Positions 5,980-18,254 of a DNA stretch of 64,000 bases are shown here, in pieces. The DNA lies in the NCBI GenBank assembly GCA_963827965.1, contig CAWHCW010000007.1:43937-107936 (forward strand), in the 5' to 3' direction. The notes under the pieces are model-generated. The model was not told the origin of the DNA and ran no database searches. It saw nothing but the letters and a program-made list of their open reading frames with translations. Position 1 is the stretch's first letter, and every line of letters starts with the position of its first letter. Origin of the DNA: an uncultured Chloroflexia bacterium (GTDB lineage: Bacteria > Chloroflexota > Limnocylindria > Limnocylindrales > CSP1-4). A program made the position numbers and the translations under genes.

Positions 5980-6036
5980 CGTCGATCGCGGTCCGTCCGG
6001 CCAGAGTCGATCGGCACGACCCCCGGGATCGAGCCG

Positions 6037-6640
6037 TCAGTCCCCGGCGCCTGGCGTCCAGCCGCCCCGGCGGCCGTCCCACGTGGCGATCGCGCGGACC
6101 GCGTCCCGACCCTCGCGCTCCTCGGCCCGGGCGCGGGCCGACGCGACGGTCTCGCCCCAGCCGGGCGGCCGGAGGCCGGGGGCCAGGTCGGCCAGCGGGG
6201 CGAGCACGAAGAGCCGCTCCCGGGCGCTGGCGTGGGGGACCTGCAGCCATTGGACGCCGGGCTTCGCGGGGTCCTCGCTGCGGGCGGCCGGCGGGCGTTC
6301 CACGCGGAGCGCGTGGCGACCGAAGACGAGGAGGTCGAGGTCGAGCTCGCGGGGGCCCCAGCGCTCGCGCGGCCTGGCGCCCGAAGGCACGCTCGATCGC
6401 CTTGAGCGCGAGGAGCAGGGCCAGCGCGCCGGTCTCGGGGTCGGGGCCGGCCGGGACGTCGAGGGCGACGACCGCGTTGCGGAACTCCGGCTGGTCCGTC
6501 ACGCCGACGGGCGCCGTGGCGTAGAGGCGGGAGACGCCGGCGAGGCGGGCGCCGGGCAGGGCCGCCAGGGCGTGGATGCCGGCGGCGAGCGTGCCCGCCG
6601 CGTCGCCGAGGTTCGCGCCCAGGCCGACGTAGGCACGGAC
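6037..6640 (-). CDS. folK: 2-amino-4-hydroxy-6-hydroxymethyldihydropteridine pyrophosphokinase (HPPK), frameshift near 6380
   Basis: The N-terminal VRAYVGLGANLGDAAGTLAAG...ALALLLALKAIERAFGR is in one frame. The C-terminal ELDLDLLVFG...RERLFVLAPLADLAP is in another. Confidence 0.7.
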
Positions 6641-6693
6641 CGCCGCGTCCGCGCCGCGCGCGCTCTCGTGTCGCCATGGCCCGAGAATACGCG

Positions 6694-7810
6694 CGTGGGC
6701 GCCGTCACGGTCCTGGTCCTCCATCCGCCGCTCCCCGCGGGCGCGGGTCCGCTGGCGGCCGCGCTCGACGCCGCCCGGCGGGAGCTGGCGACGCGCCACG
6801 TCGCCGGGTTCGGGGCGGCGGGCGCCGCGGCGGTCGCCCTCGTCGAGGAGGAGCTGGGCCGAGTCGTTCGGCGCCCGCCTGCGTCGCCTCGCGGCGGCGG
6901 CGGGCACGCCCGGGATCGTCGTCCTGGGATCGGGGGCGATGGCGCTGGCGCGCCCGGCCGACTACCGCGCCTTCGTGGCGGCGGCGGCCTCCGATCTCCG
7001 GGGCGCGCTGGCGAACAACCGCTACTCGGCGGACGCGATCGCCGTCGCCGGGGCTGCGGTGCTCCGCGACCTCCCCGATCTCCCCGCCGACAACGCCCTG
7101 CCGCGCTGGCTCGAGGAGGTCGCCGGGTATCGGCTGGACGACCTCCGGCGGCGGCCCCACCTCGGCCTGGACCTGGATTCGCCCGCCGACACGCTGCTCG
7201 CGGGGGGAGCGCTCCCGGCGGCCGCGGCGGGGTCGCCGTTCGCGGCGCGCCTCCACGCCCTCCGGACAGTGCTCGCAGACCGGCGGGCCGAGCTGACCGT
7301 TGCGGGGAGGACGTCGGCCGGCACGTTGGCCGCGCTCGAGCGCCACGCCGCCTGCCGGGTCCGGGCGTTGATCGAGGAGCGCGGGCTTCGAGCCGCCTCG
7401 AGGCTGGCCCTGGGTCGGGACCGCTCGCCGGAGGCGCCGCCCGAATCCGCGCCGGCTGCCCGCGCGGCCGGCCAGCTGTCGCGCCGGCCGCTCGTCCGCC
7501 GGCCTCGGTGCTCGGCCTCCTCCTGGACCGGGACGGCCCCGCGGAGCTCGGACGGCTCCTCGCCCGCCTCGGCGACGCGGCGGTCGTCGACACGCGGGTG
7601 CTCCTGGCCCATCGCCTGGGCGCCGACGAGGAGGCCTGGCCGCCGCCGGAGGACCGGTTCGCCTCGGACCTGCTGCTGCCGGAACGCATCGGCGATGCCT
7701 GGCTGCGGTCGCTGACCGCCGCTGCCGCTGCCGCGCCGATCCCGGTCCTCCTCGGCGGGCACACGCTCGTGGGACCTGGCCTGCGCCTGCTCGTGGAGCG
7801 GACGCGGTGA
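6694..7810 (+). CDS. DUF2064/nucleotidyltransferase-like hypothetical protein (two frameshifts)
   Basis: VTVLVLHPPLPAGAGPLAAALDAARREL... then GIVVLGSGAMALARPADYRAF... then ...AAVVDTRVLLAHRLGADEE... in three frames. The family call is weak. Confidence 0.3.
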
Positions 7811-7826
7811 TCGCGGAGGCCTGCCC

Positions 7827-8987
7827 GTGAGCACGCCGGCCGAGGACGCGATCCGGGCCGAGATTGCCCGCCGGGGGCCGATCCCGTTCGCGGATTTCAT
7901 GGCCCTGGCCCTGGGGCACGCCGAGGGGGGCTACTACACGGCGGCGGCGGCCCGGCCGACCCGCGGCGGCGACTTCCTGACGGCGCCCGAGCTGCACCCG
8001 GTCTTCGGGGCCGCGCTCGCCCGCCAGGTCGCCGAGGCCTGGGAGCGCCTCGGCCGGCCCGCCCCGTTCACGCTGATCGAGTACGGCGCGGGGGCCGGAA
8101 CGCTGGCGCTGGCGATCCTCGCCGGTCTCCGCGACGACGGCTCGCCGCTCGCCGGAGCCCTCGTCCACGCCCCGGTCGAGCTCAATCGCCACCGGCTGGG
8201 CGAGCTTCGCACGCGTGCCGCCGCGGCTGGCCTGCCCGTCGTCGACCCGGCCGGGCTCGACACGGCCCCGACCGCCGGCGCCGTCCTCGCCAACGAGTTC
8301 CTCGACGCGCTCCCGGTCCACCTCCTCGAGGTCCGCGACGGCCGAGCGCTGGAGGTCCGCGTGACCCTCGAGGCCGATGGATCGTTCGGCGAGACGCTGG
8401 AGGAGCCCGCGGACCCCGCGCTGCGCGATCGGCTGGAGAGCCTGGCCGGGGAGGGGATCGCCCTCGTCGAGGGCCAGCGGCTCGAAGTCCGGCCGGCCGT
8501 GGCGGCGTGGGCGCGGGAGGTGAGCCGGAGGCTCGCGGCGGGCCTCGTGCTCGTGCTCGACTACGGCGCACCGGCCGCCGACCTGTACGGGCCGCGCCGG
8601 CGGGCCGGCACGCTGATGACCTACCGGGGGCACGCGGCCGAGGGTGATCCCGGCGCCCCGTACCGCGACGTCGGGGAGCGGGACATCACGGCCCACGTCG
8701 ACACCACCGCCCTCGCCGCCGCCCTCGTGGACGCCGGCCTCGCCCTCCTGGGGGAGACCTCCCAGGCCGAGCTGCTCGTCGGCTGCGGACTCGAGGAGCT
8801 GGTCCAGCGGCGCCAGGCGGCGGCCGCGCGGGCGTCCGAGGCGCTGGAGCTGCGGAGCGCGGTCATCCGCCTGCTCGACCCGCGCCACCTCGGTGGCTTC
8901 CGGGCGGTGCTGGCCGGGCGCGGGATCGCCGCCGAGCCGCCCCTGCGCGGGCTGTCGTACCGCGGGCCGGGGGCGCGCCCGCGGTAG
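7827..8987 (+). CDS. DUF185/MidA-family SAM-dependent methyltransferase (NDUFAF7 homolog)
   Basis: Intact 386 aa ORF: [18 protein letters not shown]...[19 protein letters not shown]...[12 protein letters not shown], characteristic of COG1565/MidA. It sits directly upstream of nuoA on the same strand. Confidence 0.8.
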
Positions 8988-9244
8988 CCCGACGCAGGTT
9001 CGGGAGAGGAGCCGCTGCCGCTGCGGCGCCGTGCCGCCTGGCGTGCCGCCGCCGCTCCGTGTCGCCTGGCGTGCCGCCCCGCCACCCCCCCGCCGCGGCG
9101 GCACACAGCCCGCCAGCATCCCCTGCTACGATGCCGCTGCACGTCCGGGCCTCCGGCTGCGTGTGCGCGCGTCTCACCCGAGCTTCCCGCCGGGCCGGCG
9201 GACCGATCACCAAATTCGTGGTCCACCGGCCGCAGAGAGGTGCG

Positions 9245-9601
9245 ATGGAAGGCATCTGGTACGTCGTCGGCTTCGCCTTCGTGGGCGTCGCCTTCGTCTT
9301 CGTCGTGATCGGCGCCTCGTGGCTCATCAGCCACCGCACGAAGGGCAGTCCCCTCAAGGGCCTCCCGTACGAGAGCGGCATCCCGACGTACGGCGACACC
9401 CACGGGCGGTTCGGCGTCTCGTACTACATCTACGCGCTGCTCTTCGTCGCCTTCGACATCGAGGTGATCTTCATCTTCCTGTGGGCGCTGGTCGTGCGCG
9501 ACCCGATCCCCGGGCTGATCTCCTCCATGGGGATCTTCGTCCTCGTCCTCCTCCTGGGCCTGGCCTACGCCTGGCGCAAGGGCGTGTTGACGTGGCGCTG
9601 A
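9245..9601 (+). CDS. nuoA: NADH-quinone oxidoreductase subunit A
   Basis: [29 protein letters not shown]...[11 protein letters not shown]...[22 protein letters not shown]. Confidence 0.9.
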
Positions 9602-10326
9602 CCCGCCCGCCCGCCGGCGGCCCGCCCGCCGGCGCGCCCGGCAGCCGCCTGCCCGTCCCGGCCACGAAGGCCGAGGACGAGGTCGCCGAGGCGATCGTGG
9701 TCCCGAACGTGCTCTGGACGCCCGTCGATGACGAGGCCTACGGGGGCGTTCCCCTCGCCGAGACGCCGACCCTCGTTCTCAAGAAGTACGACGAGTCCGG
9801 CGAGGGACGCCGCAACGACGCCCGCTGGGGCGGCCTGGACGTGATCCCCACCAAGGCGGACTACGTCCTGGACCTGATCCGCCTCAACAGCCTCTGGCCG
9901 CTCCTCTCGGGGCTGGCCTGCTGCGCGTTCGAGATGATGTCCGGCGCCACGAGCAAGAACGACATGGACCGCTGGGGCATGTTCCCCTTCCGGGCCTCGC
10001 CGCGCCAGGCGGACGTCCTCATCGTGGCCGGCACGCTCACGACGAAGATGGCCGAGCCGCTCATCCGCCTCTGGGAGGAGATGCCCGAGCCGAAGTGGGT
10101 CGTCGCGATGGGCGACTGCACCTGCTCCGGGGGCCGCTACAAGCGGAGCTACAGCACGATCCAGGGGATCGACCGGGTCATGCCCGTCGACGTCTACGTC
10201 CCGGGCTGCCCGCCCCGCCCGGAGGGCCTCATCTACGCGATGATGAAGCTCCAGCACCTGGTGCGGGACCGCCGCGGCCACTGGCCGGAGCGCAACATCG
10301 GACCCACCGTCCCGGAGGGGATCTGA
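9592..10326 (+). CDS. nuoB: NADH-quinone oxidoreductase subunit B
   Basis: [12 protein letters not shown]...[13 protein letters not shown]...[12 protein letters not shown]...[10 protein letters not shown], the N2 cluster motifs. The GTG start overlaps the nuoA stop. Confidence 0.9.
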
Positions 10327-10328
10327 CC

Positions 10329-10880
10329 GTGGACCGCGCCTTCAAGGCACTCCTGGAGCGGAAGCTGGGCTCCGCGGTGGAGGGTCCGGTCCGCCAGCGC
10401 CACGACCAGACCGAGATCCGGATCCGGCCCGGCGACCTGCCGCAGGTGATGCGGACGCTGCACGACGAGCCGGACCTGCGCTTCGAGTACCTGGCCGACC
10501 TGTGCGGCGTGGACACGGGGACCACGTTCCAGGTGGTCTACCACCTCTGGAGCGACGTGACCCCCGACTGGCTGCGGGTCATCGTCGACGGGATCCCCCG
10601 CGACGAGCCGCGCCTCCCGTCGCTCACCTTCCTCTGGAAGGGCGCCGAGTGGATGGAGCGCGAGGCCTACGACATGTTCGGCCTCGTCTTCGAGGGGAAC
10701 CGCGACCTCCGCCGCATCTACCTGCCCGACGACTTCGTGAGCTTCCCGCTGCGCAAGGATTTCCACCTGGCCGACGACGTCGCGCGCTCGCCGGGCGGCG
10801 GGCTCCGGCCGATGGAGCGCGCCGGTCCTCCGCAGGACGCCGACGAGACCACGCTCCGGCGCACGTCGCCGGGGGCGTAG
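10329..10880 (+). CDS. nuoC: NADH-quinone oxidoreductase subunit C
   Basis: LCGVDTGTTFQVVYHLWS...FLWKGAEWMEREAYDMFGLVFEGNRDLRRIYLPDDF. Confidence 0.85.
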   Translation: MDRAFKALLERKLGSAVEGPVRQRHDQTEIRIRPGDLPQVMRTLHDEPDLRFEYLADLCGVDTGTTFQVVYHLWSDVTPDWLRVIVDGIPRDEPRLPSLTFLWKGAEWMEREAYDMFGLVFEGNRDLRRIYLPDDFVSFPLRKDFHLADDVARSPGGGLRPMERAGPPQDADETTLRRTSPGA

Positions 10881-10890
10881 GCGAGACGAC

Positions 10891-12105
10891 ATGACGACAC
10901 CGACCCGACCCAGCCTCGACGACCCGGCGCTCCAGATCCCGGTCGACCACGCCGGCATCTTCGAGCCGCTCCCCGTCGCCCACACCGAGCGACAGCGGGA
11001 GTTCTACGCCCTCCGCGATGGCGAGATGCTCCTCAACATGGGGCCTCACCACCCTGCGACGCATGGCGTCCTGCGGGTCGTCCTCAAGATCAACGGGGAA
11101 CAGGTCGTGGACCTGGACCCGATCCTGGGCTACCTCCACCGGGGCGTCGAGAAGCTCTGCGAGAACGCCGACTACCACCAGTCGATCGCGTACATGGACC
11201 CCCTCGACTACCTGGCCTCGATCTTCTGCGAGTGGCCGGCGGTCATGGCCTTCGAGAAGCTCCTCGACGTCGAGGTCCCGCGGCGGGCCGAGTACATCCG
11301 GGTCATCGCCGGCGAGCTCAACCGGATCGCCAGCCACACCCTGTTCCTGGGCTTCATGGCCCTGGACCTGGGCGGGATCACCCCCATCCTGTGGAGCTTC
11401 TCCGAGCGCGACGAGATCGTGGAGATGCTGGCCGGCCTGACCGGCGCCCGCATGCTCTTCAACTACTTCCGGATCGGCGGCGTCAACGGCGACCTGAACC
11501 ACGAGTTCATGAGCCGCCTGGGCGACTGGATGGGCCGGGCGAGCGAGCAGCTCGAGGCCGGCACGGGCCTCCTGAACGAGAACGAGATCTTCGTCCGGCG
11601 CGCCCGGGGCATCGGCGTGATCGACCGCGAGACGGCCCTCCGGATGTGCGCCAGCGGGCCGAACCTCCGGGCGTCGGGCGTCCCGTTCGATCTCCGCCGG
11701 GCCCACCCCTACAGCGTCTACCCGGAGCTGGACTTCGAGATCCCGACCCGCCAGGAGGGCGACTCGCTGGCCCGCTACCTGCTCCGGACCGACGAGGTCA
11801 AGCAGAGCCTCCGGATCATCGACCAGTGCCTCCACCAGATCCCCGACGGGCCCGTCATGGCCCGCCTGCCGCGCCTCCTGCGCCCGCGCCCGGGCCGTGC
11901 CTTCGGCGCGGTCGAGGGACCACGCGGCCAGTACTCCACCTACGTCGTCAGCGACGGCACGGACCAGCCGTTCCGGATGCGGATCCACGACCCCAGCTTC
12001 CTGCACCTCCAGCTCCTGGGTCTCCTGATGCCGGGCAACCTGATCGCGGACACGATGGCGATCATGTCGTCCCTGGACCCGGTCATGGGCGGCGCGGACA
12101 AGTGA
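10891..12105 (+). CDS. nuoD: NADH-quinone oxidoreductase subunit D
   Basis: LNMGPHHPATHGVLRVVLKINGEQVVDLDPILGYLHRGVEKLCE...; intact 404 aa ORF. Confidence 0.95.
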   Translation: MTTPTRPSLDDPALQIPVDHAGIFEPLPVAHTERQREFYALRDGEMLLNMGPHHPATHGVLRVVLKINGEQVVDLDPILGYLHRGVEKLCENADYHQSIAYMDPLDYLASIFCEWPAVMAFEKLLDVEVPRRAEYIRVIAGELNRIASHTLFLGFMALDLGGITPILWSFSERDEIVEMLAGLTGARMLFNYFRIGGVNGDLNHEFMSRLGDWMGRASEQLEAGTGLLNENEIFVRRARGIGVIDRETALRMCASGPNLRASGVPFDLRRAHPYSVYPELDFEIPTRQEGDSLARYLLRTDEVKQSLRIIDQCLHQIPDGPVMARLPRLLRPRPGRAFGAVEGPRGQYSTYVVSDGTDQPFRMRIHDPSFLHLQLLGLLMPGNLIADTMAIMSSLDPVMGGADK

Positions 12106-12118
12106 GGGCCGCTCACCG

Positions 12119-13462
12119 ATGACCGCCGTGACGTCCTACTGGAACCGGCTGTCGCTCCCCTCGCGGATCCTGCTGGTCCTGGTGCCCACGTTCCTGGTGC
12201 TGGGCGGCGCCGCGACGGTCGCGATCGTCCTGCTCGTGCCGCCGCTCCTCGACTTCCTGGGGGCGAACCCGGGCCTCGTCCGCTTCGCCGTCGCCATGCT
12301 GCTGGTGATCGTGGCCACGATCCCGACGGCCTTCGTGATCATCCTCCTGGAGCTGAAGGTGATCGCCCGGATGAACCTCCGGGTGGGGCCCGACCGGGTG
12401 GGACCGTTCGGGGTGGCCATGAGCGTGGTCCACGGGCTCAAGGTGCTCGCCAAGGAGGACTACACGCCGCGCGGCGTCGACGTCCTGATCTTCACCCTGG
12501 CCCCGGTCGCGGTCTTCCTGACCACGATCATGAGCTTCCTCGTGATCCCCTTCGGGCCCGGCCTGATCGCCCAGGACTTCAACATCGCCCTGCTCTACTT
12601 CTTCGCGATCGGCGGCCTCAACGTCGTGGGCCTGATGATGGCCGGCTGGGCCAGCTTCAACAAGTACAGCCTCATCGGCGCGCTGCGCGCCGCGGCCCAG
12701 GCGATCAGCTACGAGATCCCGCTCACCCTCTCCGTGGTCGGCGTGATCATCCTGGCCGGGACCATGAGCCTGGGCTCCATCGTGCAGCAGCAGGCCGGCT
12801 CGGCCCTGGACTGGAACGTCTGGAAGCAGCCCCTGGGCCTGCTCATCTTCTTCGTCGCCGGCATCGCGGAGGTGAACCGGACCCCGCTCGACATGACCGA
12901 GGCCGACCAGGAGATCGTGGCCGGCTTCGCCACCGAGTACTCCGGGATGCGCTTCGGCTTCTTCTTCTTCGCCGAGTACGTCAACGTCTTCGTCATGTCG
13001 GCGATGACGGTCGTCCTCTTCTTCGGCGGCTGGAACGCGCCCTTCGACTGGCCGTTCCCCGTCACCCTGGCCCTCGACCCGGGGAGCCTGGGGCTGGGCC
13101 TCCTCTTCGTCGTGGGGCTGGCCCCGGTGCTGGGAACGGTGCTCCTGGCGCTTCCCTTCTGGCTCGGCTCGTCGCGGATCTCGGCACTCCGGGCGCTCCT
13201 GATCGGGTTCCTCCTCTTCAACGTCCTGGCCGTCGGCGCCTTCCTCGGCTGGGCCTTCATCAGCTTCGACTGGGTGGTGGGGCTCTTCTGGATGAGCGCC
13301 AAGAGCTACGTCTTCGTGCTCGTCTTCGTCCAGATGCGGGCGACCTTCCCGCGGGTCCGGGTGGACCAGCTGATGAGCTTCGCCTGGAAGTGGCTCCTGC
13401 CTGCCGCCCTCCTCAACATCTTCGTGACCGCCATCGCGGTCTCCATCCTGGGCAACCGGTGA
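12119..13462 (+). CDS. nuoH: NADH-quinone oxidoreductase subunit H
   Basis: RMNLRVGPDRVGPFG...NRTPLDMTEADQEIVAGFATEYSGMRFGFFFFAEY; intact. It follows nuoD directly, with no nuoEFG in between. Confidence 0.95.
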   Translation: MTAVTSYWNRLSLPSRILLVLVPTFLVLGGAATVAIVLLVPPLLDFLGANPGLVRFAVAMLLVIVATIPTAFVIILLELKVIARMNLRVGPDRVGPFGVAMSVVHGLKVLAKEDYTPRGVDVLIFTLAPVAVFLTTIMSFLVIPFGPGLIAQDFNIALLYFFAIGGLNVVGLMMAGWASFNKYSLIGALRAAAQAISYEIPLTLSVVGVIILAGTMSLGSIVQQQAGSALDWNVWKQPLGLLIFFVAGIAEVNRTPLDMTEADQEIVAGFATEYSGMRFGFFFFAEYVNVFVMSAMTVVLFFGGWNAPFDWPFPVTLALDPGSLGLGLLFVVGLAPVLGTVLLALPFWLGSSRISALRALLIGFLLFNVLAVGAFLGWAFISFDWVVGLFWMSAKSYVFVLVFVQMRATFPRVRVDQLMSFAWKWLLPAALLNIFVTAIAVSILGNR

Positions 13463-13472
13463 GGGGGCCGCG

Positions 13473-14306
13473 ATGAGCAGCATCCCGGGCCTCGGCCTGG
13501 CCAGGGGCATGGCCCTGACCCTGCGCCGCTTCTTCCAGCCCCCGGTCACGATCAAGTACCCCGAGGTGGACGCGGACGTCGCGGTGAAGTACCGCGGCCG
13601 GCTCCAGCTCCTCTACGACGAGCACGGCACGCTCAAGTGCGAGACCTGCTTCCAGTGCGCCCAGGCCTGCCCCATCGAATGCATCGACATGGGCGGCACG
13701 GACACCAAGGGCCGCTTCGCGGTCCACTGGGGCGCCGCCGAGACGTACGGCGAGCGGCGCACGGAGTCGGCCCTCCGCCGCGCCGGGCGCGAGGTCCCCG
13801 ACGCGCTCTTCACGGCCTTCGAGCCGGCCGACCTCGACGCCGTGGACGCCATCCTGGAGGACCACGACCACGACCCGCACCGGATGCTCTCCATCCTGGA
13901 GGCCGTCCAGGCCGAGTTCGGCAACCTTCCGGTCGCCGCGCTCAAGCGGATCAGCCATCGGACGGGCGCCTGGTACGCGATGATCTACGGCACCGCCAGC
14001 TACTACCACCACTTCCGCTTCGAGCGGACGGTGGAGGAGGTCGCCGTCTGCCGCTGCACGGCCTGCCTGATGGCCGGCGGGGGCCGGCTTGCCGATGCGA
14101 TCAGCGCCGGGCTGCGGACCGAGATGGGCCGGCCCACCCCGGACGGCCGGATCCGCTTCGCCTGGCTCTCCACGCACCTGCCCGGCGCCGCCGCCCCGCT
14201 CGTTGCCCTCGACGGCGAGGCCCAGCCGGAGGTGACCGCCGCCAACGCCACCGCCTGGGCCCAGGCGCTCGCCGGGGAGCACCCGGCCAGCCGCACGGTC
14301 CACTGA
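13473..14306 (+). CDS. fusion of an N-terminal NuoI fragment (single 4Fe-4S motif) with a NuoE-like thioredoxin-fold domain
   Basis: Residues 1-85 (FFQPPVTIKYPEV...RGRLQLLYDEHGTLKCETCFQCAQACPIECIDM...KGRFAVHW) align with the first half of NuoI/TYKY. Residues about 125-245 (RMLSILEAVQAEFGNLPVAALKRISHRTGAWYAMIYGTASYYHHFRF...VCRCTACLMAGGG...DGRIRFAWLSTHLPGAAAPLVALDGE) align with NuoE, but the second Cys pair is replaced by W/H. It is a single continuous frame; the other frames are junk. Confidence 0.7.
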   Translation: MSSIPGLGLARGMALTLRRFFQPPVTIKYPEVDADVAVKYRGRLQLLYDEHGTLKCETCFQCAQACPIECIDMGGTDTKGRFAVHWGAAETYGERRTESALRRAGREVPDALFTAFEPADLDAVDAILEDHDHDPHRMLSILEAVQAEFGNLPVAALKRISHRTGAWYAMIYGTASYYHHFRFERTVEEVAVCRCTACLMAGGGRLADAISAGLRTEMGRPTPDGRIRFAWLSTHLPGAAAPLVALDGEAQPEVTAANATAWAQALAGEHPASRTVH

Positions 14307-14310
14307 GCCG

Positions 14311-15642
14311 ATGACGACGATCCTCGCGACACCCGCCGGCCGGCCCCGCCCGATCCTCGGCGACGCCACGGGGCCCGTCCCGGCCGACCTCGGCGCCGCG
14401 GTCGCCGGCGGCGCGTTCGCCGCGCTGCGCTCCGTCGTCGGCGACCTGGGGCCCACCGGCACCGTGGCGACGATCGCCGCCTCCGGGCTGCGCGGCCGGG
14501 GCGGCGCCGGCTACCCGGCCGGCGACAAGTGGCGGGCCGTCGCCGGTGCCGCCGACCCCGTCCGGTACGTGGTCGCCAACGGGTACGAGGCCGACCCGGC
14601 GCAGGCAACGAACCGCGTCCTCATGGAGACGCGGCCCTTCGCCGTCGTGGAGGGCACCGCCATCGCCGCCCTCGCCGTCGGCGCCCGCGAGGCGATCATC
14701 GCGGTCCGGGCCGAGTACGCCGACGCGGTGCGAGCCCTGGAGGCCGCCGCCTTCGCCGCCGAGGAGGCCGGCTTCCTCGGGGCGGACGTCCTGCGCTCCG
14801 GCCGCGACGTCGCCGTCACCGTCCGCACCGTGCAGGGCGCCTACATGCTGGGCGAGGAGACGGTCCTCCTGCAGGCCCTGGAGGGGAAGCGCGGCCAGCC
14901 CGAGCAGCGCCCGCCGTACCCCACCGAGCGCGGCCTCTTCGGCCATCCGACCCTCGTCCACAACGTGGCCACGCTGGCGACCGTGCCCTGGATCGTCCTC
15001 AACGGCGTCGACGCCTTCCGCGCCATCGGCGACCCCGACGCGCCGGGCACCGTGCTCGTCGGGGTCTCCGGCGCCGTGGCCAACCCGGGGATCGCCGAGA
15101 TCCCGACCGGGACGACCCTCCGCGAGATCATCGACCTCGCCGGGGGCCTCGCCGCCGGGCACACGTTCAAGGCGGCCCTGGTCGGGGGCCCCAGCGGCGG
15201 GCTCCTGCCGGCGGAGCTCCTCGACACGCCCTACTCGTTCGACGCGCTGCGGGCGACCGGCGCCCACGTCGGCTCGGGCGGGGTCGTGATCGCCGACGAG
15301 GGCACCTGCATCGTGGACCTGGCCCGGCTCCTCGTCCGCTACGGCGCCGACGAGGCCTGCGGCAAGACGATCCCCTGCCGGATCGGCCTGCGCCGGCTGG
15401 CCGAGATCGGCCAGCGCTACGTCGACGGCACGGCCCGGCCCACCGATCCGAAGCTCCTCGCCGACCTCGCCGACGACTGCGCCGCGAGCGCGCTCTGCGA
15501 TCACGAGCGGCTGGCCCCCTCGCCGCTCCGCACGGCGATGCGATACTTCGGGCCAGAGATCGACGATCACATCCTCCGGGGCGTCTGTCCCGCCGGCGTC
15601 TGCAGCCCGATCCGGGTCGCCGGCGCGAGCACCGGAAGGTAG
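14311..15642 (+). CDS. nuoF: NADH-quinone oxidoreductase subunit F-like (FMN/NADH-binding 51 kDa family)
   Basis: GLRGRGGAGYPAGDKW, GEETVLLQALEGKRGQPEQRPPYP, and the Fe-S region EACGKTIPCRIG...ALCDH. The middle Cys of the usual CxxCxxC is Thr here. Confidence 0.85.
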   Translation: MTTILATPAGRPRPILGDATGPVPADLGAAVAGGAFAALRSVVGDLGPTGTVATIAASGLRGRGGAGYPAGDKWRAVAGAADPVRYVVANGYEADPAQATNRVLMETRPFAVVEGTAIAALAVGAREAIIAVRAEYADAVRALEAAAFAAEEAGFLGADVLRSGRDVAVTVRTVQGAYMLGEETVLLQALEGKRGQPEQRPPYPTERGLFGHPTLVHNVATLATVPWIVLNGVDAFRAIGDPDAPGTVLVGVSGAVANPGIAEIPTGTTLREIIDLAGGLAAGHTFKAALVGGPSGGLLPAELLDTPYSFDALRATGAHVGSGGVVIADEGTCIVDLARLLVRYGADEACGKTIPCRIGLRRLAEIGQRYVDGTARPTDPKLLADLADDCAASALCDHERLAPSPLRTAMRYFGPEIDDHILRGVCPAGVCSPIRVAGASTGR

Positions 15643-15656
15643 GCGACGACCGCACG

Positions 15657-18254
15657 ATGGCCGACCTGATCTCCCGCCCCACCGACCTCGTCTCGACGAC
15701 CCGCCCCGAGCCGGTCGTCGACAGCGTCGCCGAGCGCCTCTTCCGGACCCAGGCGCCGCAGCGGCCGCAGTCGACGCCCGTCATCCGCCTCGAGGTCGAC
15801 GGACGACTCGTCGAGGGCCGCGAGGGCCAGACGATCCTGGAGGTCTGCCGCGACAACGGGATCGAGATCCCGACCCTCTGCTACGAGCCGAAGCTGCCGG
15901 GCTTCGGCGCCTGCCGGATGTGCGTGGTGGAGGTGGAGGGCGAGGAGCACCCGCCGATCTCGTGCTCGCGGGCGGCCGAGACGGGGATGGTGGTCCGGAC
16001 CCAGACCGAGGAGGTCCGGCGGATCCGCCGGACGAACCTCGAGCTCATCTTCTCCGACCACAACGCCTACTGCCTGCCGCCCTGCCAGAACAAGTGCCCC
16101 AGCCACATCGACATCCCGGGCTTCCTGAAGGCGAACGCGGAGGGCGAGTTCCGCGAGTCGGCCCGCATCTTCAAGCGGACGATCCCCTTCCCCTCCATCC
16201 TCGGCCGCGTCTGCCCGGCGCCCTGCGAGGAGCACTGCCGCCGCGACGAGGTCGACGAGGCGATCGCCATCCGCGACAGCCACCGCTACGCCGGCGACCA
16301 GGTCCTCCGCGAGATGCTGGAGCAGGACCTCGACCCGCCCGTCCCCTTCGAGCTGCAGCCGACGTCGGGCAAGCGGGTGGCGGTCATCGGCTCGGGGCCG
16401 GCCGGCGCTTCGGCGGCCTACTACCTCCTGATCGCGGGCCATGACGTCACCATCTTCGAGCGCGACGAGGCCCCCGGCGGGATGCTCCGCTACGGCATCC
16501 CCGAGTACCGCCTGCCGAAGGAGCGCGTCCTCGACCCCGAATACGAGAGCGTCACCCGCCTGGGCGGGCGCTTCGTCTGCGGCCAGGCCCTGGGGCGCGA
16601 CTTCAGCCTGGACGACCTCCAGAACCAGGGCTTCGACGCGGTCGTGGTGGCCATCGGCTGCTACGACACGAACAAGCTGGGGATCCCCAACGAGGACGCC
16701 GACGGCGTCATCGACGGCCTGGCGTACCTCAAGATCGCCACCCTCGGCCTGACCTACCCGGGCCACGCCGGCACGCGGGTCGTCGTGATCGGCGGCGGCT
16801 TCACGGCGATGGACTGCGTCCGCACCTCGGTCCGCCAGGCCGCCGCCGAGGTGACCCTCGTCTACCGCCGCGACATGAAGGACATGCCGGCCTCGAGCGA
16901 GGTCCACGAGGCGATCGAGGAGGGCGTGACCACCATCTTCCAGGCCGGCCCGACCCGCGTCCTCGTCGACGAGGCGAGCGGCAAGGTCTCCGGCGTCGAG
17001 TTCATCCGGATGCAGCTCGGCGCGCCCGACGCGTCCGGCCGCCGGCGCCCCGAGCCGGCGCCCGGGACCGAGTTCGTCATCGAGTGCGACCGGGTCCTGC
17101 TCGCCATCGGCCAGGGGCCGGACCTCGCCTGGATCGGCCCCGGCAACGACGGGCCGCAGGCCACGAAGCAGCGCCGCCTCAAGGTGGACCCCGTCACCTT
17201 CGAGACGGGCCGGCCCGGCATCTTCGGCACGGGCGACGTCCGCACCGGCGCCGCCACCGTGGTCCAGGCGATCGCCGACGGGCGGCGCGCGGCGTACGCC
17301 GTGGACGCCTTCCTGCAGGGCCTGGACCTCGGCGCGATCCGGACCCGCCAGACGCTGGCGGAGCCGCAGCCGGAGTTCCTCTCCATCGTCCCCTTCACCT
17401 CCGAGGTGAAGGAGTCGCGCCATCGCCTCGGCAGCATGCCGGCGGAGGAGCGGCGGACCTCGTACATCGAGTACGAGATCCCCTACAGCCGCGAGGCGGC
17501 GGTGGCGGAGAGCACGCGCTGCCTGCAGTGCACCTGCGAGGCGATCGGCTTCTGCGACCTCCGCCGCCTCGGCATCGAGTACGGGACGACCCTCCGGACC
17601 CTGGAACCGCAGAACAACCGGGGGGCCGGCTTCCGGAGCGTCACCGAGAATCGCTTCACCGGCACGAACCACGACTACCTCCGCGACGACAGCCACGCCT
17701 TCATCCTCCGCGAGCCGTCGCGCTGCATCGACTGCGGCCGCTGCGCCCAGGTCTGCTCGGAGGTGGTGGGCGCCGCCTGCTACGACTTCATGCGGATCGG
17801 CTTCGACACGCTGGTGACGACGCCGCTCGACATGAGCCTCAACGACACGCCCTGCGTCTCCTGCGGCCGCTGCGCCGAGACGTGCCCGACGGGCGCCCTC
17901 ATGCCGAAGCCGCGGATCCTGGAGAAGTACGAGGTCGACGAGAGCCGCTGCATCCTCTGCGGGATCTGCGTGGACGCCTGCCCCTACGACGCCCTCCGCT
18001 GCGGCCCCGACTTCGAGCTCGCCCACACGAGCCGCGAGGAGCCGGAGATCGACCTCATCGCGATCGCCGCCGTGGATCGCGAGACGGAGCTGACCTACGT
18101 GCGCCGCGAGCGCGACTGGGCCCAGCGGGCCCTCGCCTCCGGGCGCGACATCGGGCCGCGGATGCTGCCCGTCCTCCCGGCCTCCATCGCGGGCGGGGGC
18201 GGGAAGGGCAACGGGAGCGAGCACGCGGCGCCGCCCCCCCACGGAACCGACTGA
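15657..18254 (+). CDS. NuoG-like iron-sulfur protein with an inserted GltD-type (glutamate synthase small-subunit-like) FAD/NAD(P)H domain and a NuoI-like 2x[4Fe-4S] C-terminus; no molybdopterin-like domain
   Basis: Residues 40-110 form a NuoG-type 2Fe-2S domain (VIRLEVDGRLVEGREGQTILEVCRDNGIEIPTLCYEPKLPGFGACRMCVVEV). Residues about 135-555 match GltD closely (CLPPCQNKCPSHIDIPGFL, GKRVAVIGSGPAGASAAYYL, VVVIGGGFTAMDCVRTSVRQAAAEVTLVYRRDMKDMPASSEVHEAIEEGV, GVEFIRMQLGAPDASGRRR, GIFGTGDVRTGAATVV). Residues 675-745 resemble the NuoG N4 region (FILREPSRCIDCGRCAQVC...CPTGAL). Residues 730-800 read CVSCGRCAETCPTGALMPKPRILEKYEVDESRCILCGICVDACPYDALRCGPDFELA, which is NuoI-like. Confidence 0.75.
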   Translation: MADLISRPTDLVSTTRPEPVVDSVAERLFRTQAPQRPQSTPVIRLEVDGRLVEGREGQTILEVCRDNGIEIPTLCYEPKLPGFGACRMCVVEVEGEEHPPISCSRAAETGMVVRTQTEEVRRIRRTNLELIFSDHNAYCLPPCQNKCPSHIDIPGFLKANAEGEFRESARIFKRTIPFPSILGRVCPAPCEEHCRRDEVDEAIAIRDSHRYAGDQVLREMLEQDLDPPVPFELQPTSGKRVAVIGSGPAGASAAYYLLIAGHDVTIFERDEAPGGMLRYGIPEYRLPKERVLDPEYESVTRLGGRFVCGQALGRDFSLDDLQNQGFDAVVVAIGCYDTNKLGIPNEDADGVIDGLAYLKIATLGLTYPGHAGTRVVVIGGGFTAMDCVRTSVRQAAAEVTLVYRRDMKDMPASSEVHEAIEEGVTTIFQAGPTRVLVDEASGKVSGVEFIRMQLGAPDASGRRRPEPAPGTEFVIECDRVLLAIGQGPDLAWIGPGNDGPQATKQRRLKVDPVTFETGRPGIFGTGDVRTGAATVVQAIADGRRAAYAVDAFLQGLDLGAIRTRQTLAEPQPEFLSIVPFTSEVKESRHRLGSMPAEERRTSYIEYEIPYSREAAVAESTRCLQCTCEAIGFCDLRRLGIEYGTTLRTLEPQNNRGAGFRSVTENRFTGTNHDYLRDDSHAFILREPSRCIDCGRCAQVCSEVVGAACYDFMRIGFDTLVTTPLDMSLNDTPCVSCGRCAETCPTGALMPKPRILEKYEVDESRCILCGICVDACPYDALRCGPDFELAHTSREEPEIDLIAIAAVDRETELTYVRRERDWAQRALASGRDIGPRMLPVLPASIAGGGGKGNGSEHAAPPPHGTD

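Follow-up and report, generated by a model that had tools for sequence, protein, structure and literature searches.

What does a gene for a MidA-type methyltransferase do directly upstream of the genes for respiratory complex I in a member of the Chloroflexota, and does its product act on that complex? The question is raised by a 64,000-nucleotide stretch of DNA from an uncultured Chloroflexia bacterium, referred to here as the window, in which a plus-strand gene at 7827..8987 precedes nuoA. The gene starts with GTG, ends with TAG at 8985-8987, and carries the ribosome-binding site GGAGG on the same strand (7816..7820), 6 nt 5′ of the GTG, all as read from the sequence. It is intact, encodes 386 amino acids, and shows codon-position GC fractions of 0.83, 0.58, and 0.94 in one phase throughout, which is of the coding type for a window of ∼74% GC. 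The preliminary description had assigned the product to the NDUFAF7/MidA-like (DUF185) family and proposed a profile search with COG1565 or Pfam Methyltransf_28 as a check. That search upheld the assignment, matching Methyltransf_28 (PF02636, formerly DUF185, COG1565) with an E value of 5.9e-46 and 157.4 bits, well above the curated cutoff of 23.3 bits, and aligning residues 63 to 309 with profile positions 1 to 247 of 249. An NCBIfam scan of the protein returned no matching model. More than 1000 homologs are present in databases, and the closest are 383 to 387 amino acids long with 95 to 100% query coverage, so the predicted start is sound. JGI names these closest homologs "SAM-dependent MidA family methyltransferase"; a small number are assigned to an organism, in most cases a Chloroflexota metagenome-assembled genome. 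The family also occurs within a giant multidomain protein, the 3,371-residue database entry P0211, which has a MidA-like domain at residues 895 to 1208.

Structural comparison gave the same family placement. Sequence matches in the PDB were 4f3n (E, 4.7e-37), 1zkd, and 5ztz, the last of these being Dictyostelium MidA, for which the direct match is modest (E, 5e-13). A family profile built from 38 diverse PF02636 members recognized Dictyostelium MidA over its full length (E, 2.6e-55; profile 11 to 370 on chain 20 to 397). Foldseek comparison of an AF2 model of the window protein (pLDDT, 82.8; pTM, 0.85) yielded TM scores of 0.77 with 4f3n, 0.74 with 1zkd, and 0.72 with 5zu0 MidA, and at most 0.36 with other methyltransferases. 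The full-length protein is modeled as a seven-β-strand SAM methyltransferase core joined by the extra domain specific to the family. Methyltransferase motif I, the SAM-binding glycine-rich loop, is located by family alignment at E85-Y-G-A-G-A-G-T92 (8079..8102, plus strand) and aligns with EMGPGRGT of Dictyostelium MidA; E85, G87, and G91 are invariant or nearly so in the 38-sequence alignment. The motif (ExGxGxG) is intact, and all 17 invariant columns of the alignment are present in the window protein, a set that includes the GYY, D49, E157/D160, D245-Y-G, and D286 motifs.

Human NDUFAF7 and Dictyostelium discoideum MidA (5ztz/5zu0) thus share with the window protein the PF02636 domain, the same two-part fold, and the motifs GYY, GDFxTAPE, ExGxGxG, NEFxDALPxH, and IDYG. 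The differences are that identity to Dictyostelium MidA is only 19% in the structural alignment, that a late motif reads DITAHVD in the window protein and DLSVWVD in Dictyostelium, and that the window protein has no targeting sequence, unlike NDUFAF7 and MidA. The closest solved structures are the Burkholderia thailandensis COG1565 protein (4f3n/4g67) and the Rhodopseudomonas palustris DUF185 protein (1zkd), which are 25 to 34% identical to the window protein and were matched by the family profile with E values of 3e-91 (4f3n) and 6e-66 (1zkd). Both are structural-genomics entries without an assigned function or substrate, and they therefore add nothing on mechanism.

The predicted substrate is NuoD, encoded at 10891..12105 on the plus strand (Pfam Complex1_49kDa; E, 5.5e-84). 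The arginine that the preliminary description had singled out, R84 of a conserved LHRGVEK motif at 11140-11142, is indeed in place. Residue 84 is encoded by CGG (11140..11142, plus strand) and lies in GYLHRGVEK, within DLDPILGYLHRGVEK. Alignment places it on Arg85 of the mature bovine protein (5o31_D; ungapped offset, query 45 to 170 on chain 46 to 171) and on Arg65 of Paracoccus denitrificans (8qby_D; query 48 to 170 on chain 29 to 151). By this alignment, R84-G85 is the conserved Arg-Gly of the β3-α1 loop in NuoD/NDUFS2, so that the substrate site of the NDUFAF7/MidA system is kept as LHRG in the window. The same LHRG is kept in every complex I-linked NuoD or NdhH of the surveyed loci. Cluster N2 is no more than a few angstroms from this arginine once complex I is assembled, and the dimethylarginine adjoining N2 matters for mitochondrial complex I assembly.

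Bovine Arg85 and P. denitrificans Nqo4 Arg65 are symmetrically dimethylated; the equivalent arginine of Escherichia coli is present and unmodified, and Thermus has a threonine there (Carroll et al., PMC3750175). Since E. coli carries the same residue unmodified, the presence of the arginine does not discriminate between modified and unmodified complexes. To our knowledge, E. coli has no PF02636 gene. The modification in P. denitrificans, at exactly the aligned position, demonstrates that it exists in prokaryotes (PMC3750175, PMC11522691), and as of 2024, this was the only bacterium reported to have it (PMC11522691). P. denitrificans is an alphaproteobacterium close to mitochondria, whereas the window derives from a member of the Chloroflexota with a very different nuo operon. 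The unmodified arginine of E. coli would suit a second reading, in which the MidA-fold methyltransferase serves complex I in some other manner, by modifying another residue or another subunit or by acting mainly as a noncatalytic chaperone of NuoD. Speaking against that reading are the intact SAM-binding motif and invariant residues of the window protein and the record of the family, as the only characterized PF02636 members methylate exactly the NDUFS2 arginine (PMC3829151, PMC9006661), with NDUFAF7 making this modification in human cells (Rhein et al., PMC3829151). It is likely, in our view, that the window protein, as a SAM-dependent protein arginine methyltransferase, dimethylates Arg84 of NuoD and is thereby a complex I maturation factor.

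Three genes, nuoA, nuoB, and nuoC, lie between the methyltransferase gene and that for its predicted substrate. The gene for the methyltransferase had been described as codirectional with nuoA and about 250 nt upstream of it, and the distance from its stop to the nuoA start is 257 nt, on the same strand. nuoA (9245..9601, plus strand; Pfam Oxidored_q4; E, 1.2e-28) starts with ATG at 9245. nuoB (9592..10326, plus strand; Pfam Oxidored_q6), the product of which carries cluster N2, starts with a GTG that overlaps the end of nuoA; this start, taken from the letters themselves, is also the one called in the closest relative (L085). nuoB is followed by nuoC (10329..10880, plus strand; Pfam Complex1_30kDa; E, 2.3e-39), and nuoH (12119..13462) comes after nuoD. 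The junction between MidA and nuoA, at 257 nt, is not of the operon type. The intergenic region (8988..9244, plus strand) holds a conserved extended -10-like motif and a conserved leader. The motif, TGCTAsGAT, reads TGCTACGAT at 9124-9132 and is kept in the window and in three relatives (L002, L003, and L004), in alignment with which the block CCTGCTA.GATG is invariant. A leader of ∼105 nt before nuoA, extending to 9244, is conserved in the window and the same three relatives. Judged from these letters, the motif and leader possibly constitute a nuo promoter plus a structured 5′ untranslated region, and because a conserved promoter-like motif lies in the gap, nuo probably has a promoter of its own there. 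A scan of 7600-9400 for consensus sigma-70 promoters and intrinsic terminators found none, which is not informative at 74% GC, and Rfam scans (6000-10000 and the whole window) and a tRNA scan found nothing. In the close relative L001, an unrelated reading frame of 255 amino acids (11449-12216) separates the MidA gene from nuoA. It matches no family, and neither the window nor any other locus examined contains a homolog.

A separate promoter for nuo would agree with a third reading, that the adjacency has no functional meaning, the gene order having simply been inherited, and that the enzyme acts on something unrelated, for example another protein, a nucleic acid (RNA or DNA), or a small molecule. 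The immediate relatives of the window do not settle the matter. Four of them, with MidA proteins 67 to 83% identical to that of the window, have the order folK on the minus strand (called in three of the four), a gene for ∼350 to 420 amino acids, MidA, and nuoA. The whole neighborhood of this clade is syntenic, including clpB, NUDIX, cupin, purH, and folK genes, so linkage in four close relatives proves little alone and could there be passive. For a broader survey, each GTDB species was represented by one genome and scanned with a family profile; of the 594 loci confirmed, the best 80 were retained, and tblastn was used to find Nuo homologs in the flanking DNA.

Linkage to complex I genes recurred in three phyla among the best 80 of the 594 loci. 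Limnocylindria-type and unclassified Chloroflexota contributed 17 loci, and in 11 of these, MidA precedes a codirectional nuoA by less than 1 kb, with gaps of 145 to 749 nt; one more Chloroflexota locus (L015) is linked at 8.3 kb. Across the Limnocylindria-type clade, MidA is upstream of nuoA in 16 of 16 loci (gaps, 145 to 1,287 nt), and the adjacency is kept down to 43 to 56% MidA identity. The Nitrospirota were represented by 20 loci, in 13 of which MidA and nuoA follow each other in that order and direction, with gaps of 102 to 244 nt. Their nuo operon is canonical (A-B-C-D-..F..-H), and its proteins are ∼40 to 50% identical to those of the window. In half of the 18 cyanobacterial loci (L019, L050, L067, L083, L082, L026, L054, L066, and L081), the distance from MidA to ndhH or ndhC-K-J is at most 4.1 kb, and the strand is always shared. 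None of the nine loci from Dehalococcoidia/SAR202, the three from Thermomicrobia, and the 13 from other phyla, Desulfobacterota included, was linked, which would favor adjacency without functional meaning.

The recurrence outside the clade of the window argues the other way. The three phyla show four arrangements, with MidA upstream of nuoA, before ndhH, after ndhH, or after ndhJ, and the remaining neighborhood differs between phyla; in Nitrospira, for example, secA is the upstream neighbor of MidA. MidA directly adjoins nuoA in 24 of the best 80 of 594 loci, each representing a species, and this is far above chance for one gene among thousands. A fourth phylum is known from the literature, as "Candidatus Actinomarina" has an NDUFAF7 gene after an 11-subunit nuo operon (bioRxiv 10.1101/2021.02.01.429150). 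That case resembles the window in having a bacterial PF02636 gene in a nuo cluster, which its authors read as a complex I accessory factor; it differs in belonging to the Actinobacteria, in having the gene after nuoN and not before nuoA, and in being mentioned only briefly, in work on the gene context of heliorhodopsins. Passive synteny of one clade was rejected as the explanation of the linkage, which recurs in other phyla with different neighbors. As for an unrelated substrate, the MidA of Wolbachia has been proposed to methylate DNA, a proposal that its authors call preliminary (PMC12455994); we considered a DNA methyltransferase role, and the present analysis gave it no support. Overall, we judge it improbable that the adjacency is without functional meaning. 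The earlier suggestion that the genomic context supports a role in complex I has accordingly gained ground, since the linkage to nuoA or ndh genes recurs in Chloroflexota, Nitrospirota, and cyanobacteria; given the promoter-like motif in the gap, cotranscription is not implied.

The history of the linkage was examined with a rough neighbor-joining tree of 88 MidA sequences, built with no support values. The tree follows taxonomy, and the complex I-linked forms fall into three separate clades, so the linkage either arose repeatedly or has persisted over a very long period. The window protein lies within a Chloroflexota clade, and 1zkd and 5ztz lie outside all sampled non-proteobacterial sequences. 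In this rough tree, the window protein is thus placed outside the alphaproteobacterial/mitochondrial NDUFAF7 subclade, and the tree gives no support to strict orthology with NDUFAF7.

Linkage to nuo or ndh genes supports an association with complex I indirectly and does not give the exact target, and to that extent, it would agree equally with a different role of the methyltransferase in the complex. The cyanobacterial loci bear on the target more directly. In Chroococcus (L019, 8736-11119), ndhH is followed by MidA with a 56-nt gap, and in Aphanocapsa (L050, 2511-4943), MidA is followed by ndhH with a gap of at most 36 nt; in both, the flanking genes are on the opposite strand. Because the pair occurs in both orders, these isolated two-gene clusters point at NuoD/NdhH specifically as the partner, which counts against another subunit. 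Among the papers searched, none links NDUFAF7 with cyanobacteria or reports arginine methylation of NdhH, and a search for NdhH and dimethylarginine was dominated by clinical papers.

The nuo operon of the window is itself unusual. Its order is A-B-C-D-H-[I'::E]-F-[G'::GltD::I'']-J-K-L-M-N, and relatives show the same order as far as their loci extend. nuoI is apparently split, with the electron-input module inserted inside it (13473-18254). The first gene of this segment (13473-14306; 277 amino acids) encodes the N-terminal half of NuoI (amino acids 8 to 80, with a single CxxCxxCxxxCP motif) joined to a NuoE-like [2Fe-2S] thioredoxin-like domain. A NuoF-like protein is encoded next (14311-15642). 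In the product of the third gene (15639-18254; 871 amino acids), a NuoG-N-like 2Fe-2S domain and a GltD-like NAD(P)H flavoprotein occur together with an extra 4Fe-4S motif (ferredoxin) and the C-terminal half of NuoI (amino acids ∼760 to 808). The only precedent that we found is a partial one, from Mbx-like operons, where a GltD-like protein stands in for NuoI (PMC4758237). The split-nuoI operon may merit more attention than the methyltransferase. With NuoI split and a flavoprotein module added, this complex I could need a maturation of its own, which would again suit a role for the methyltransferase other than on Arg84. Against this, the linkage is also found with the canonical nuo operons of the Nitrospirota, and we regard a different role within complex I as unlikely, if less so than an adjacency without meaning.

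The gene on the other side of the methyltransferase is its closer neighbor. It occupies 6674..7810 on the plus strand and is broken in the window into three frames (6674-6853, 6861-7454, and 7505-7810), with a +1 insertion at ∼6855 and a +2 insertion at ∼7469 relative to two relatives. The folK (HPPK) gene on the minus strand (6037-6700) likewise shows a frame switch, at ∼6380-6400, between its N- and C-terminal halves. As both genes change frame, the window may carry indel errors or young pseudogenes at the upstream gene and folK; the MidA gene itself is intact. The upstream gene and MidA overlap by 4 nt in relatives and are 16 nt apart in the window, and MidA is translationally coupled to this gene and not to nuoA or any other nuo gene. 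The upstream family consists of proteins of ∼350 to 420 amino acids, a large set of "hypothetical proteins," and the protein had no match in Pfam or NCBIfam even at an E value of 10. A fold search gave the sole lead, a CofC/FbiD/MobA-like nucleotidyltransferase fold at the N terminus. Among the loci surveyed, the family was found only in Limnocylindria-type Chloroflexota, directly before MidA; the exception is L015, in which the upstream-family gene alone stands directly before nuoA, with MidA 8.3 kb away. tblastn gave no match to the family in the Nitrospirota or cyanobacterial loci surveyed.

A pairing of this kind suggests a fourth reading, in which MidA and its nucleotidyltransferase-fold partner belong to a separate pathway, either for a cofactor of the F420 or molybdopterin type or for quinone biosynthesis, that the complex I of this clade needs and that does not act on NuoD. 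We know of no MidA-family member that acts on small molecules, which weighs against this reading. In the surveyed loci, the upstream family is confined to Limnocylindria-type Chloroflexota, and the linkage of MidA to complex I is much broader; the P0380 fusion, moreover, may be an indel artifact of overlapping genes. A separate pathway is in our view the least probable of the explanations, and very improbable in itself.

Methylation of NuoD by the MidA protein, the reading that we prefer, would proceed as follows. The enzyme would bind free NuoD and place two SAM-derived methyl groups on the guanidino nitrogens of Arg84 in LHRG, giving symmetric dimethylarginine. Because the arginine is within a few angstroms of N2 in assembled complex I, methylation would precede the docking of NuoD onto NuoB. 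The methylated side chain would then help the Q-module assemble and would shape the environment of N2. Expression of the two partners would be separate: MidA probably shares a promoter with the nucleotidyltransferase-fold gene that precedes it, and nuo probably uses its own promoter in the gap.

A role for prokaryotic MidA in NuoD methylation is not a new idea. Bacterial MidA homologs were proposed in silico to methylate this arginine by Shahul Hameed in 2018, as that work is cited in later papers (PMC9006661, PMC12455994), and the function of bacterial MidA has so far been inferred in silico only (PMC9006661, PMC12455994). The value of the present analysis is that it extends the prediction to Chloroflexota, Nitrospirota, and cyanobacterial NDH-1, where it is easily testable. 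In particular, the pairing of cyanobacterial MidA with ndhH or ndhC-K-J predicts arginine methylation of NdhH in photosynthetic NDH-1.

Since the pairing of MidA with complex I recurs in three phyla, modification of the NuoD arginine is probably much wider than the single reported bacterial case. The stronger proposition is that MidA-type dimethylation of the N2-adjoining arginine of NuoD/NdhH is ancient and widespread in bacterial complex I, including that of cyanobacteria (photosynthetic NDH-1), Nitrospirota, and Chloroflexota, and is not an alphaproteobacterial or mitochondrial specialty; for this, we hold the chances to be evenly balanced. If the prediction is true, MidA would be the first dedicated complex I maturation factor common to bacteria and mitochondria across phyla, and in Limnocylindria-type Chloroflexota, it would work with a previously undescribed partner of nucleotidyltransferase fold. 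The origin of NuoD arginine methylation would then move to well before the proteobacteria, and there would be bacterial systems in which the assembly and N2-tuning roles of the modification could be separated genetically.
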